From a phage: a stretch of 64,000 bases of DNA. The notes beneath the pieces were generated by a model. The model was not told where the DNA came from, searched no databases, and was given only the letters and a program-made list of their open reading frames with translations. This document shows positions 3,044-25,785 of the stretch, piece by piece. Every line of letters begins with the position of its first letter. Position 1 is the first letter of the stretch. Where the stretch lies: NCBI GenBank assembly GCA_027337125.1, contig GCA_027337125.1_3057.1; one strand, written 5' to 3'. The position numbers and the translations under genes are program-made.

Positions 3044-3115
3044 GGCCCTGTAGCTGGAAGGTTCAAGCAAGCGACTCATAATCGCCAGATGGTGGTTCAA
3101 TTCCACCCAGGGCCA
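3044..3115 (+). tRNA. tRNA-Ile (anticodon CAT, lysidine-type as in T4)
   Basis: Acceptor GGCCCTG/CAGGGCC, anticodon loop TCATAAT, T-arm GGTTCAATTCC. Confidence 0.8.
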
Positions 3116-11896: not shown

Positions 11897-12372
11897 TTGT
11901 AAAATATATCAAGGGCGATATTGTCGCCCTATTTCTTCAAGGTAATATTATTGCGCATGGGTGCAACTGCTTTCATACTATGGGTTCAGGTGTAGCAGGT
12001 CAATTAGCAAGGGCCTATCCTAAAATTTTAGAAATAGATAAAACCACAACTGAATATGGTTCGCGTGAAAAACTTGGTGATATGTCTATTGTTTTTAAAC
12101 ATAATCCTACAGGATTTGGTATATGCTATAACCTGTATACACAATACGAACCAGGTCCTAATCTTGATTATGGTGCTTTAGTAAACTGCATGATAGAATT
12201 AAATCTACAGGCAGAAACCCTTTTGTTTAAACCAGTAATTTACATTCCACGCATAGGTTGTGGTATTGCTGGCGGTGATTGGGATAAGGTTTCTAAATTA
12301 ATCGACATGTTTACTCCTGATATTGATTTAATAGTGGTGGATTATGAAAGCACATTACCCGCATCCGTTTGA
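11893..12372 (+). CDS. macro-domain protein (ADP-ribose binding/processing)
   Basis: Macro-domain glycine motifs HGCNCFHTMGSGVAGQL and GCGIAGG. Confidence 0.65.
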   Translation: MIVKYIKGDIVALFLQGNIIAHGCNCFHTMGSGVAGQLARAYPKILEIDKTTTEYGSREKLGDMSIVFKHNPTGFGICYNLYTQYEPGPNLDYGALVNCMIELNLQAETLLFKPVIYIPRIGCGIAGGDWDKVSKLIDMFTPDIDLIVVDYESTLPASV

Positions 12373-12556
12373 TCCTAAAAACAAAGCAGAAATTATTCGT
12401 CAATGGGAACGCATTTGCCGTACTAAATGCCCAATTAATAGTCCACATGATGTAGATAAAGACTATATTGGAACATTCGTTGAATATACCTTTATTGATA
12501 AGAAAGGTCGTAAACAGCATGTAGAAGAATATTGCTTAAAGGTTACATGGTTATGA
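12344..12556 (+). CDS. hypothetical protein
   Basis: 70-aa ORF with GGTGG SD, overlaps macro gene end. Confidence 0.45.
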   Translation: MKAHYPHPFDPKNKAEIIRQWERICRTKCPINSPHDVDKDYIGTFVEYTFIDKKGRKQHVEEYCLKVTWL

Positions 12557-12738
12557 GTTTAAGTAAAGAACAGAAAGATAAATTGTTTGAGCTTATCCAT
12601 GAACTTCTAGATGAGCATACAGAAGCAAACACCTTTTATGATGAATACGGCCCGCTATCTCCCGAACAGCAGGAAGAATTTGCTGAACGGTTTGATAAGA
12701 AAGAAAATGAATTAATAGCTTATGTGAATACACTTTAA
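12547..12738 (+). CDS. hypothetical acidic protein
   Basis: ATG (MVMSLSK) after AAAGG; ORF-track start is TTG. Confidence 0.45.
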   Translation: MVMSLSKEQKDKLFELIHELLDEHTEANTFYDEYGPLSPEQQEEFAERFDKKENELIAYVNTL

Positions 12739-12747
12739 GAAGGTGAT

Positions 12748-13329
12748 ATGGCGAGTTTAATTTTTACTTATGCAGCAATGAATGCTGGAAAATCTGCTTC
12801 TCTTTTGACTGCTGCGCATAATTATAAAGAACGTGGAATGAGTGTATTAGTTCTTAAGCCTGCTATTGATATTCGCGATTCTGTCTGTGAAGTTGTTTCT
12901 CGCATTGGAATTAAACAGGAAGCGAATATTATTACAGATGATATGGATATTTTCGAGTTCTATAAATGGGCTGAAGCACAAAAAGATATTCATTGCGTAT
13001 TTGTAGATGAAGCTCAGTTTTTAAAAACTGAACAAGTACACCAATTAAGCCGGATTGTTGATACATATAATGTTCCTGTTATGGCTTATGGATTAAGAAC
13101 TGATTTCGCTGGAAAATTATTTGAAGGTTCTAAAGAACTTTTGGCGATTGCTGATAAACTTATTGAGCTTAAAGCGGTTTGTCACTGTGGTAAAAAAGCT
13201 ATTATGACCGCTCGATTAATGGAAGATGGAACCCCAGTTAAAGAAGGCGATCAAATTTGTATTGGTGATGAAATTTACGTATCTTTATGTAGAAAACATT
13301 GGAACGAATTAACTAAAAAGCTAGATTAG
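12748..13329 (+). CDS. tk: thymidine kinase
   Basis: 193 aa, P-loop AMNAGKS, zinc-ribbon CHCG...C; matches recalled T4 Tk. Confidence 0.9.
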   Translation: MASLIFTYAAMNAGKSASLLTAAHNYKERGMSVLVLKPAIDIRDSVCEVVSRIGIKQEANIITDDMDIFEFYKWAEAQKDIHCVFVDEAQFLKTEQVHQLSRIVDTYNVPVMAYGLRTDFAGKLFEGSKELLAIADKLIELKAVCHCGKKAIMTARLMEDGTPVKEGDQICIGDEIYVSLCRKHWNELTKKLD

Positions 13330-13371
13330 CGCAAAAGTTATAAATAGGTTTATCTAACTAAAGGGGTATAT

Positions 13372-13584
13372 ATGCTACAATTAACTGAAAAGCAACTTCG
13401 CAATCTTACTGTGCTTCAATTAGATGAAATTCGTAGAGAAGTTGGAAATGTTATTTCAGCTTTGCGTCGAGAAGTATCAATCAACCAATCTCCGGCAGAC
13501 TATACCAGATTGCGAAATTTTGAAAAATACCTTGATAAAGTTAAGGCCGTACATCGGCATAAAGTAAATACAGGACAAAAATGA
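13372..13584 (+). CDS. hypothetical protein
   Basis: 70-aa ORF with AAAGGGG SD; TATAAATA-like box upstream. Confidence 0.5.
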
Positions 13585-13596
13585 TAGGAGGCCTTT

Positions 13597-13890
13597 ATGG
13601 CCTTAAAAGCAACGGCACTATTTGCCATGCTAGGATTGTCATTTGTTTTATCTCCATCTATTGAAGCGAATGTCAATCCTCATTTTGATAAATTTATGGA
13701 ATCTGGTATTAGGCATGTTTATACACTTTTTGAAAACAAAAGCGTAGAATCGTCTGAACAATTCTATAGTTTTATGAGAACGACCTATAAAAATGACCCG
13801 TGCTCTTCTGATTTTGAATGTATAGAACGAGGCGCGGAGATGGCACAATCATACGCTAGAATTATGAACATTAAATTGGAGACTGAATGA
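13597..13890 (+). CDS. secreted protein
   Basis: Signal peptide MALKATALFAMLGLSFVLSPSIEA; GGAGG SD. Confidence 0.5.
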   Translation: MALKATALFAMLGLSFVLSPSIEANVNPHFDKFMESGIRHVYTLFENKSVESSEQFYSFMRTTYKNDPCSSDFECIERGAEMAQSYARIMNIKLETE

Positions 13891-14273
13891 AATTCAGCGA
13901 CTTTTCACAAAGTGGAAAACCTTCGAAGGCAGATGAATACTTAGGTTTATTAATGGCTGCACAAGCTTATTTTCATTCTGCACATTTTGAAACTAAAAGT
14001 TATGCTAGACACAAAGCATACGATTTTATTTTTTCCGAGTTACCAGATTTGATTGACAAATTTGGTGAGCAGTATTTGGGGTATTCTGGTAGAAAATACA
14101 CTCCTTCAATTCCAGATGCTAGTAAACTTCCTACCGATACAATTAAAATGATTGATCACATACTAGACCAATCTAACAGCATTTATAAAGAAATGCCTCC
14201 AGCCATTCAAAGCACGATAGATGATATTACTGGAATGTTTTATCAAAGTAAATATCTTCTTTCCCTCGAATAA
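13887..14273 (+). CDS. hypothetical protein
   Basis: 128-aa ORF, ATGA overlap. Confidence 0.5.
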
Positions 14274-14276
14274 CAT

Positions 14277-14300
14277 TAGTCTCCTTCGGGAGACTTTTTT
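14277..14300 (+). terminator. rho-independent terminator
   Basis: AGTCTCC-TTCG-GGAGACT hairpin plus TTTTTT, immediately followed by an early promoter. Confidence 0.65.
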
Positions 14301-14310
14301 CATTTTACCA

Positions 14311-14340
14311 GTTTACTTTTCGTTTGAGCCGTGGTACTAT
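14311..14340 (+). promoter_or_regulatory. early promoter (GTTTAC / TACTAT) with conserved leader
   Basis: GTTTAC, 17-bp spacer, TGGTACTATACAACTATCAA block shared with four other promoters. Confidence 0.6.
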
Positions 14341-14368
14341 ACAACTATCAAATAAAGAGGAGAACATC

Positions 14369-14557
14369 ATGAAAATTGAAGCACTCAATCAAGAAGGAAA
14401 TATCTATGTCATCATTAATGGTGATTTTTTCGTCGACATGGATGAAGTCACTAGTGAAGAACTTGTAGAATTTCTTAAGAAACGCTATAATATGTGTGAT
14501 GAAGCTGCAACTCACATGGCGTGTGCAATATTCTCTCTTTCATATGTGGTGGAATAA
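14369..14557 (+). CDS. hypothetical protein
   Basis: ATG after AAAGAGGAG SD; ORF-track start lies in promoter. Confidence 0.5.
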
Positions 14558-14760
14558 TGATTAGTATCGAACAAGCGGATAAGATTAAAGAATTGGTGGC
14601 TTTAATTCGTAAAGCAGATGAGGAACTTAGTGACTTTGGTTGGTTTTCGTCAGGCATTGCAAATAAAGGTATTGATGAATTTGAAGCTAAAGTTGATAAT
14701 GCTATGGAAGCTTTAGATAGGTTTCTTGATGAAATTATCGATCACAATACGAGAGTTTAA
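14557..14760 (+). CDS. hypothetical protein
   Basis: ATG (MISIEQ) overlapping previous stop, GGTGGAA SD. Confidence 0.5.
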   Translation: MISIEQADKIKELVALIRKADEELSDFGWFSSGIANKGIDEFEAKVDNAMEALDRFLDEIIDHNTRV

Positions 14761-14762
14761 GT

Positions 14763-14957
14763 ATGCTGACACACGAACAGTTTGAAAAAATCATTAAATT
14801 AGCACGTGATGTTGAAATAGATTCATATCAATTAGCAGTTGAGCATTGCGAAGGATATTCATACGAAGGTATAGCAGCAGCTAAAAAGGATTTGGATAAA
14901 TCTAAAGCTAAGTTAGTTCAATATCTTGAAATGATTAGGTGGAATAATGAAAACTGA
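14763..14957 (+). CDS. hypothetical protein
   Basis: 64-aa ORF. Confidence 0.5.
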   Translation: MLTHEQFEKIIKLARDVEIDSYQLAVEHCEGYSYEGIAAAKKDLDKSKAKLVQYLEMIRWNNEN

Positions 14958-15120
14958 AAAGCAGATGTTTTTAATGAAGCTAATTGAAGAATATGCTAAT
15001 GCAGTTTCTGACTATGAGTATTCTTCTCGTGAAAGAGGTACAGCTTTCGCCAAAGAAGAAATGAAAATCATGGTTGATGCTCATACAAAGCTTCAAAATT
15101 TTATTGAAAACAACATTTAA
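14947..15120 (+). CDS. hypothetical small protein (57 aa)
   Basis: ATG overlapping previous gene end, coding-like composition; below ORF-track cut-off. Confidence 0.4.
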   Translation: MKTEKQMFLMKLIEEYANAVSDYEYSSRERGTAFAKEEMKIMVDAHTKLQNFIENNI

Positions 15121-15122
15121 CG

Positions 15123-15152
15123 GTTTACAAGTTGGCAAGGTTATGGTATAGT
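15123..15152 (+). promoter_or_regulatory. early promoter
   Basis: GTTTAC-17 bp-TATAGT. Confidence 0.5.
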
Positions 15153-15180
15153 AATCTTGTCAACTGCCAAGGAGAAGAGA

Positions 15181-15285
15181 ATGAAAGTTTTGTTTGTTGT
15201 GTATGTGATGATTCAATATAATTACCCAATGTTTACTTATAATCTAGTGAACAACATTATTGATATTATTCAAAGGAGTATGTAA
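15181..15285 (+). CDS. possible small hydrophobic peptide (34 aa)
   Basis: ATG 8 nt after CCAAGGAGAAGAGA; very short. Confidence 0.25.
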   Translation: MKVLFVVYVMIQYNYPMFTYNLVNNIIDIIQRSM

Positions 15286-15287
15286 CT

Positions 15288-15611
15288 GTGAGTGAGTCGA
15301 AGAGAATCAATATGAAACGATTAGTACTAGAAGTTAGTTCACTTTTTGGTGAATTGGCTATAGAAAAAGTAAATAACATGTATCGTTTGACGCAAGAAGA
15401 CGATATGCTATATTTTACGCCTAGCGAAATTATTCATTTAACCCAAATTGAAAAACCTTACACTGATAAAATTGTAAGCATTAATGATGAGCATAAAATT
15501 CATTTTTATTCTTTATGCCCAGGATTTAATATTGAAAGCGAGTCAATATGCTTATCAATTAATAATTGGGATAATTTTATAGCTAAGATTAAATATTTTC
15601 TATTATTCTAA
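15288..15611 (+). CDS. hypothetical protein, possibly N-terminal part of a frameshifted gene
   Basis: GTG start after AAAGGAG; 107 aa; a start-less open frame in +1 continues downstream. Confidence 0.35.
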   Translation: MSESKRINMKRLVLEVSSLFGELAIEKVNNMYRLTQEDDMLYFTPSEIIHLTQIEKPYTDKIVSINDEHKIHFYSLCPGFNIESESICLSINNWDNFIAKIKYFLLF

Positions 15612-15843
15612 TGAAAGAAAACATGGTTTAAAATGGTTTAAAAATTGCAATGCTATTATTACTAACGCTTGTAATCAAAATTATGAAACTGTTTTAAATG
15701 TATCAAAATGCTATGAAGAGGGAGATGTCTTAACTATTCGTCAATCGGTAAATGATGTTAATGCTGTTGTATTAAACAAAGAAGAAGCTGTTTTATTAAA
15801 GACTTATCTTGATTCTGTCATTCCAACTATGATTTCAAAGTGA
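15583..15843 (+). pseudogene. start-less +1-frame ORF (86 codons), putative C-terminal part of disrupted or frameshifted gene
   Basis: Protein-like translation with no ATG/GTG/TTG start; overlaps end of upstream ORF; adjacent 10-bp tandem duplication ATGGTTTAAA. Confidence 0.3.
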
Positions 15844-15917
15844 GGAAATATGTTTATTTCAAGTGGAACAGACCTGTGTTATAAATGCAAAGCAAAATTA
15901 AATGAGACGAAGAACCA

Positions 15918-16697
15918 ATGAATTATACTAAAGTATATAATAATTTAATTAAGAAAGGAAAACTCAGAAAATTAGATAAATCTAAATTAAATTTTTATAC
16001 GGAAAAGCATCATATTATTCCATCTTGTATTGGTGGTAATGATGATTCTGATAATCTAGTTTTATTAACAGCTAGAGAGCATTTTATAGCCCATTGGCTT
16101 TTAGCTAAAATTCATTATAATTCGCCTGGATTAATTTATGCATGGTGGTCATTTTATAATTTTGGAGAAGATTCTTTAGGAAGAAATCTCAAATTAACTT
16201 CAAGAGGATATCAGTTAGTTAGAGAAAAATTTTCAAAAATACATTCTAATACAATGAAAGAAATGTGGAAGTCTAATGAATACAGAGAAAAACGTTCGAT
16301 AACATTAAGTCTTCCTGAAATAAGGGCTAAAATTTCAGAATCCCAGTTAGAAGCACAAAACAAACCGGAAGTTAAAGAAAAAATATCTAAAGGGGTGAAA
16401 GCTGCTTTTAAACGACCGGGAGTTAAAGAAAAACACTCTGCTGCAGTCAAAAAATCTTTGAATAATTTTGAAACTAAAAAGAAACAATCAAATTCATCTA
16501 AAATTAGACAAAGAACTGGTAAACATTGGCAAGACTATGACTTACTTTATAAGTTATGGATTAAATTAAATAGACCTAAACGCGGGTCATTCGGAACTTA
16601 TATAAGTAAATTAGGATATCCAAAATCTAATTATCATCGATTGATTGTACAATTTAATGAAGATTATGAAAGGTCTAATAATGAAAACTGTAGTTAA
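15918..16697 (+). CDS. HNH homing endonuclease (MobD-like)
   Basis: HNH motif EKHHIIPSCIGGNDDSDNLVLLTAREHFIAH plus repeated NUMOD-like PEVKEK/PGVKEK motifs. Confidence 0.75.
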   Translation: MNYTKVYNNLIKKGKLRKLDKSKLNFYTEKHHIIPSCIGGNDDSDNLVLLTAREHFIAHWLLAKIHYNSPGLIYAWWSFYNFGEDSLGRNLKLTSRGYQLVREKFSKIHSNTMKEMWKSNEYREKRSITLSLPEIRAKISESQLEAQNKPEVKEKISKGVKAAFKRPGVKEKHSAAVKKSLNNFETKKKQSNSSKIRQRTGKHWQDYDLLYKLWIKLNRPKRGSFGTYISKLGYPKSNYHRLIVQFNEDYERSNNENCS

Positions 16698-25704: not shown

Positions 25705-25785
25705 GCTGCGGCAGAATATATTGAATGGCTTGAAACTCAAATTTCTTTTTCTGACCGAGCGTTTTAATACTTGAAAATAATAAAT

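Follow-up and report, generated by a model that had tools for sequence, protein, structure and literature searches.

The window analysed here, a stretch of 64,000 nucleotides, derives from a T4-like phage (Tequatrovirus), and its segment 15288-15843 is the ortholog of the T4 gene mobD.1. Very probably, this segment represents a mobD.1 gene with both domains of its family, T4_y05I_N and T4_y05I_C, into which a single base has recently been inserted. The copy in the window is a frameshifted allele of the T4_y05I family and not an intact member. Three options had been left open by the first-pass annotation, of which a pseudogene or truncated allele fits best, while a programmed frameshift is not supported and an assembly error has been made unlikely. 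The features of the locus and its surroundings are as follows.

12748-13329, thymidine kinase gene (ORF map around mobD.1)
13597-13890, rI (ORF map around mobD.1)
between rI and 15288, four small mobD.x genes (ORF map)
15124-15152, plus strand, early sigma-70-type promoter: TTTACA, 17-nt spacer, TATAGT, extended TG (10/12 in the scan)
15181-15285, plus strand, mobD.2 ortholog, 34 aa (translation; position and length as in T4 mobD.2)
15288-15611, plus strand, 5' part of mobD.1, ORF of 107 aa with a GTG start (ORF list, Pfam, alignment to T4 MobD.1)
15596-15599, plus strand, frameshift site, TTTT as against TTT (ATATTTCTAT) in the nearest intact alleles (alignments)
15601-15843, plus strand, 3' part of mobD.1 in the +1 frame, 80 codons and TGA, T4_y05I_C, no start of its own
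15623-15644, plus strand, 10-bp tandem repeat, two copies of ATGGTTTAAA followed by AA, coding for HGLKWFK in intact genes
15745-15800, plus strand, hypervariable patch in the part encoding the C-terminal domain
15918-16697, plus strand, mobD, free-standing HNH homing endonuclease gene (ORF list, T4 annotation, PMC2988022)
16645-17691, nrdC.11 (ORF map)

A megablast search with 15100-15950 matched 492 records of T-even-type phages at about 90-94% identity. The gene order tk, rI, mobD.5 to mobD.2, mobD.1, mobD, nrdC.11 is the same in the window and in T4, and the segment occupies the conserved position of mobD.1, 3' of mobD.2 in the early region that holds tk, rI, mobD and nrdC.11. For the corresponding stretch the T4 annotation lists mobD.2, mobD.1 and mobD, with mobD.1 as one gene of 546 nt and 181 aa (T4p097, NP_049711, UniProt Y05I_BPT4) that lies, like the window copy, between mobD.2 and the HNH gene mobD. 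According to the review PMC2988022, the latter encodes a free-standing homing endonuclease of the HNH type and has its insertion point between nrdC.11 and mobD.1. The promoter at 15124-15152, 5' of mobD.2 and mobD.1, coincides with the -35 and -10 elements annotated in the T4 record U76612. T4 mobD.1 starts with an ATG in a TAATG overlap, whereas the window copy has a GTG or a later ATG.

Both halves of the T4_y05I family are recognizable in the window copy and in T4 MobD.1, to which the N-terminal part is 89% identical and the C-terminal part 72% (E = 4e-41 for the 3' piece). The protein obtained by repairing the frame matches PF24449 (T4_y05I_N) over residues 12-108 with 136.7 bits (cut-off 24.9, E = 4.6e-40), and it matches PF24448 (T4_y05I_C) over residues 114-181 with 64.3 bits (cut-off 27, E = 1.4e-17), a match that holds only when one T is removed or the +1 frame is read. 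Pfam names the two halves the N and C domains of a "y05I-like putative transcription factor". In the literature, a search for "mobD.1" retrieved one paper only, which mentions it as the neighbour of the mobD insertion site, and a search for "y05I" retrieved nothing relevant. At the related loci L004, L005 and L006 and in many RefSeq phage records, homologues of mobD.1 (and of mobD.4) are named [quoted passage not shown]. Because Pfam detects only T4_y05I domains in these homologues, this name appears, from the wording of the two names, to have arisen through confusion with T4 mobD, which stands for mobile endonuclease D.

That a single gene has been split by a frameshift, as the first reading of the sequence had proposed, is borne out by an end-to-end alignment in which the 5' piece covers residues 6-100 of T4 MobD.1 and the 3' piece residues 101-181. 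The upstream ORF indeed runs from the GTG at 15288 to a TAA at 15609-15611 and encodes 107 aa, or 99 aa if translation begins at the alternative ATG at 15312. It ends with ...KIKYF followed by an aberrant LLF and the stop, and retains the whole T4_y05I_N domain. The +1 frame is likewise open as described, with 86 sense codons from 15583 and a TGA at 15841-15843, and the chance of so many open codons at the local base composition is about 9e-4. The accompanying statement that this frame lacks a start holds in the sense of a usable one, as ATG, GTG and TTG are absent from it save for one ATG, that in "...PTMISK", five codons short of the stop. Thus the single ORF of about 176-190 aa with both domains that characterizes intact members is interrupted in the window copy by the stop at 15611, and the remainder lies in +1.

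The lesion was located in alignments with T4, pSe_SNUABM_01, EcNP1, Nami, vB_EcoM_P8, ZCEC14, GRNsp7 and T2. The run at 15596-15599 has gained a T, giving ATATTTTCTAT in the window as opposed to ATATTTCTAT in the intact alleles nearest to it; with more of the flanks included, AAATATTTTCTATTATTC in the window corresponds to AAATATTTCTATTATTC in those alleles. The parental codons AAA TAT TTC TAT TAT thereby become AAA TAT TTT CTA TTA TTC TAA, and the peptide K-Y-F-Y-Y-S-N-E becomes K-Y-F-L-L-F-stop. Deleting one T in silico yields an ORF of 184 aa, full-length and with both Pfam domains. Over the whole gene, three substitutions and the extra T are all that separate the window from its closest alleles, those of vB_EcoM_P8 and ZCEC14, and the best seven phage hits to 15520-15700 are 99.4% identical to it, which means identical save for one gap. 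The lengthening of TTT to TTTT between flanks that have a local identity of 1.0 to ZCEC14 is the pattern expected of a frameshift by homopolymer slippage. Since so few differences separate the window from P8 and ZCEC14, the lesion must be very recent, and the downstream frame is therefore still open.

The first-pass annotation had also placed a 10-bp tandem duplication at the junction and implied that it caused the frameshift, which we consider to have next to no chance of being correct. A perfect 2 x 10-bp repeat of ATGGTTTAAA does exist, although its coordinates had been given off by one (it occupies 15623-15642 and is followed by AA). In favour of the proposal, it begins 12 nt past the stop codon and has a unit length, 10, that is not divisible by 3. 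It is the sole perfect tandem repeat with a unit of at least 10 nt in the 64-kb window, where repeats with units of 8-12 number 6 as against 2.2 +/- 1.5 in Markov simulations. However, it does not lie at the junction: the extra T is situated 10 nt upstream of the stop codon and 24 nt upstream of the repeat, and the stop of the upstream ORF precedes the repeat. Nor is it a duplication, as no alignment with intact homologues contains a gap or a length difference at 15623-15642, and there is therefore no extra 10-nt copy. The identical 20 nt are found inside the intact genes of EcNP1, Nami, vB_EcoM_P8 and ZCEC14, where they are ordinary coding sequence; the T4 counterpart is ATAATTTAAAATGGTTTAAA, an 8/10 match. 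Removal of 10 bp, worked out from the sequence, does not bring the frame back.

An alternative that we regard as improbable is a sequencing or consensus error, in which the fourth T would be artefactual, the true phage having only TTT and hence an unbroken mobD.1. A one-base change in the length of a homopolymer in AT-rich DNA is compatible with such an error, as are the near identity of the rest of the allele to intact ones, the absence of the fourth T from every other record found, and a downstream frame that has undergone no further decay. Against it, the contig SRR22893651_78, assembled independently by Logan from public reads and continuous through the site, equals window positions 12288-15946 at 100% identity (3659 nt), TTTT included, and encodes the 107-aa product. 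NCBI protein EKH7476165.1 corresponds to the 99-aa form with the ATG start; it is encoded by a contig of 170 kb that is catalogued under Escherichia coli and is probably the source of the window. The comparison is thus between two assemblies, the window with EKH7476165.1 on one side and the Logan contig on the other, which may share one read set, in which case a consensus error could be common to both. A run of 4 nt is, however, short for a systematic homopolymer error. When the window was scanned for indels against T4 (over its full 64 kb) and against pSe_SNUABM_01 and ZCEC14 (first 36 kb), no isolated, uncompensated indel of a length other than a multiple of 3 was found, besides that in mobD.1, to break a conserved ORF that the comparators have intact; differences seen against T4 only (the nrdC.6 3' end, a-gt.2, mobD.2a, vs.5) are common to other relatives. 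Homopolymer errors are therefore not a general feature of the assembly, and because TTTT recurs in a second assembly, the truncated protein is in NCBI and the indel is the only one of its kind in 64 kb, an assembler artefact is an unlikely source of the fourth T.

Two further observations concern other positions. The Logan contig ends at window position 15946, 29 nt into mobD, which may reflect a heterogeneous population at the mobD junction or a repeated k-mer that further mob genes share. The mobD.2a gene is 117 nt long in the T4 RefSeq sequence (1349-1465 of locus L001) and 174 nt in T4T and the window, owing to a one-base difference (window position 15049), and the T4 reference version is probably truncated or erroneous.

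With regard to the family at large, nearly all relatives have mobD.1 as an intact, single gene of 176-185 aa. Exact searches for the mutant pattern returned 0 matches in IMG/VR, JGI metagenomes and GTDB genomes; the intact pattern also returned 0 in IMG/VR, where this allele type is absent, which makes the IMG/VR zero uninformative. As IMG/VR contributed only 4 related loci, the survey was based instead on tblastn against phage records and on protein clusters. With the repaired protein as the tblastn query, 722 of 727 phage records match it over 80% or more of its length in one place, and 56 of 60 evenly sampled phage records give a single-piece match. In two protein searches about 52 of 60 clusters, from Tequatrovirus and Gaprivervirus, comprise proteins of 176-190 aa with both Pfam domains.

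These data also bear on the notion of two genuine separate genes, with the C domain expressed from a start of its own, which strikes us as very improbable. The break falls exactly at the boundary between the two Pfam domains, two PHROG families, 7763 and 10804, cover only the C part, and in one protein cluster (P0060) the C domain is joined to a different N-terminal segment. Yet the +1 frame lacks a Shine-Dalgarno sequence, its last five codons are preceded by no ATG, GTG or TTG, and the ATGs past the stop open ORFs of only 6 and 2 codons. Across genera the homologues, those of PE37, VR7 and MN01 (37-47% identity) included, consist of one ORF, in which residues flanking the junction on either side are conserved. 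The alignment of the fused protein to homologues, a check put forward together with the original description, shows a single full-length family protein, and the homologues were not found to consist of two genes with an independent start for the downstream part. A downstream restart was considered separately and rejected, given that the ATG at 15611 (in a TAATG overlap) leads only to MKENMV and a stop and the ATG at 15633 only to MV and a stop.

Broken copies of mobD.1 do occur elsewhere, sporadically and every one different. In pSe_SNUABM_01 (1713-2250 of related locus L002) one A has been lost (A5 to A4) from the run that corresponds to window 15640-15644, and the T2 record PV648363.1 (560-1140 of related locus L019) has two lesions, T4 to T2 and A6 to A5. 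Among the protein clusters, P0059 has a deletion, P0024 is a C-terminal fragment, and P0025 and P0026 are natural deletion fusions mobD.1::nrdC.11. Since broken copies, homopolymer indels and deletions recur in different phages, mobD.1 is evidently dispensable and the lesion presumably tolerated. Within the part encoding the C-terminal domain, the patch at 15745-15800 comes in two allele types, set apart by numerous substitutions and an indel of 3 nt with the frame preserved, the surrounding sequence being 95% identical: one type is found in T4, pSe_SNUABM_01 and EcNP1, the other in P8, ZCEC14, GRNsp7 and the window. Although its patch is of the P8 type, the window has mobD downstream, a gene that is absent from P8 and ZCEC14.

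Frameshifts by Streisinger-type slippage in homopolymer runs were classically defined in the rII and lysozyme genes of T4. By analogy with this established mechanism, the parental TTT run would have gained one T by replication slippage, and the window copy shares with such mutations the gain of one base within a run of identical bases; independent losses of one or two bases in other mobD.1 runs of pSe_SNUABM_01 and T2 are of the same type. The run in the window is short (3 to 4 T's) and in no way unusual, which points to a sporadic event and not to a hypermutable tract. Whether it begins with the GTG (15288) or the ATG (15312), translation would end at the TAA at 15609-15611 after LLF, and the product would be a protein of 99-107 aa that keeps the entire N-terminal domain and loses the C-terminal one. 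The 80 C-terminal codons, left with no start, would presumably go untranslated, their +1 frame being open only because the mutation is young. Known from one lineage only, the allele results from a recent frameshift of the ordinary kind in a dispensable gene. In itself this routine truncation, or loss of function, of a non-essential T-even accessory gene matters little; the recurrent homopolymer indels and deletions in different phages add to the case for dispensability. For annotation, the label of a frameshifted mobD.1 suits the locus better than that of a hypothetical protein of 99 aa with an unannotated gap behind it.

The fold of MobD.1 was modelled with AlphaFold, which reached a pLDDT of 84.8 with an alignment of 41 sequences that included Gaprivervirus and PE37-type homologues; an earlier model on a shallow alignment of 21 sequences had a pLDDT of 36 and was unusable. 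The model consists of three beta-beta-beta-beta-alpha repeats at residues 10-52, 60-107 and 112-179. Their pairing, scored as PC4-like, suggests a predicted nucleic-acid-binding fold of the PUR/Whirly kind. As in Pur-alpha, one of the PC4-like proteins together with Whirly and MRP, the modelled protein has an N domain of two repeats and a single third repeat, although sequence identity to PUR, Whirly and MRP members is only 4-12%. A sequence-profile search of the PDB gave no match (best E = 0.24), and Foldseek with the MobD.1 model returned low-TM noise only, so that a PUR/Whirly match was not reproduced. Nucleic-acid binding in Pur-alpha resides in the domain built from repeats I-II, and dimerisation is due to repeat III, the loss of which is pathogenic in humans (PMC7549692). 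By analogy, truncated MobD.1 may keep nucleic-acid binding (repeats I-II) and lose dimerisation (repeat III). The predicted three-repeat architecture thus leads to the hypothesis that MobD.1 binds ssDNA or RNA and dimerises through its C domain.

A recoding function for the site was weighed as well. Programmed frameshifting is, as far as the sequence indicates, not supported: the insertion was found in none of the related records examined (phage hits, tblastn sample, protein clusters, metagenome and genome collections), RNA structure around the site is no better than in shuffled sequences (z = -0.12), and on these grounds the explanation is disfavoured. No Shine-Dalgarno-like stimulator was found in the 15 nt upstream of the site. 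Programmed +1 sites, such as those of E. coli prfB (CUU UGA C) and influenza PA-X, differ from the window site, which is a recent mutation that is not conserved, with no stop codon in the A site, no upstream stimulator and no RNA structure. A gene-60-like bypass, from UUC-UAA (15606-15611) to UUU (15637-15639), was rejected for lack of a supporting structure and of conservation.

A functional or leaky +1 shift at UAU UUU CUA, giving the full-length wild-type protein beside the truncated one, strikes us as quite improbable. The P-site tRNA-Phe would re-pair from UUU to UUC while a slow CUA waits in the A site, and the insertion does create UUU_C followed by CUA. Influenza PA-X shifts likewise at UCC UUU CGU, where the efficiency is low, the A-site codon is rare and a 3' signal is not known (PMC8310308). 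In the window, the phage-encoded tRNA-Leu has the anticodon UAA and not UAG, and CUA is a minor Leu codon used 8.2 times per 1000 codons. In 48 ORFs of at least 150 aa, in-frame TTT_CTA occurs 0 times in 13,072 codons as against about 3.7 expected, a count whose statistics are weak. The resemblance to PA-X, that is, tRNA-Phe moving from UUU to UUC before a slow A-site codon, is nevertheless a formal one. Near relatives are all in frame, so that no recoding signal has been selected, and with no stimulator visible upstream and an insignificant RNA fold, any shifting would be an accidental low-level leak. There is a slim chance that the extra T made a PA-X-like site from which a little full-length MobD.1 and an excess of N-domain-only protein are produced; if so, the locus would be a newborn two-product recoding arrangement and not a dead gene, the short form being a PUR-like module deprived of its dimerisation repeat. 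As a separate observation, the deficit of TTT_CTA in the ORFs of the window may reflect avoidance of a shift-prone codon pair, on weak evidence.

If mobD.1 is simply a recent frameshift allele, the preferred reading, its early stop leaves about 300 nt untranslated before mobD, and a polar effect on mobD is speculative. A good Shine-Dalgarno sequence accompanies an ORF of 23 codons in the interval before mobD, at 15850-15921 (MFISSGTDLCYKCKAKLNETKNQ, then a stop). In its first five codons this ORF agrees with the beginning of a 173-aa gene that lies 3' of mobD.1 in phages devoid of mobD (ZCEC14), and it looks like a remnant of the gene displaced by the mobD cassette. The TGA of this ORF overlaps the ATG of mobD (ATGA at 15918-15921), and it may couple translation into mobD. 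A sequence resembling a late promoter, TATAAATG, is present at 15880-15887.

Elsewhere in the window, at about 25757-25768, some 160 nt are missing that ZCEC14 and pSe_SNUABM_01 have between pin and gene 49, and that contain a hypothetical gene of 58 aa in these two phages. At 3044-3115 ARAGORN reports a tRNA with the anticodon CAT as "Met"; it adjoins a tRNA-Thr, where T4 annotates tRNA-Ile, and is presumably an Ile tRNA with a lysidine-modified anticodon.
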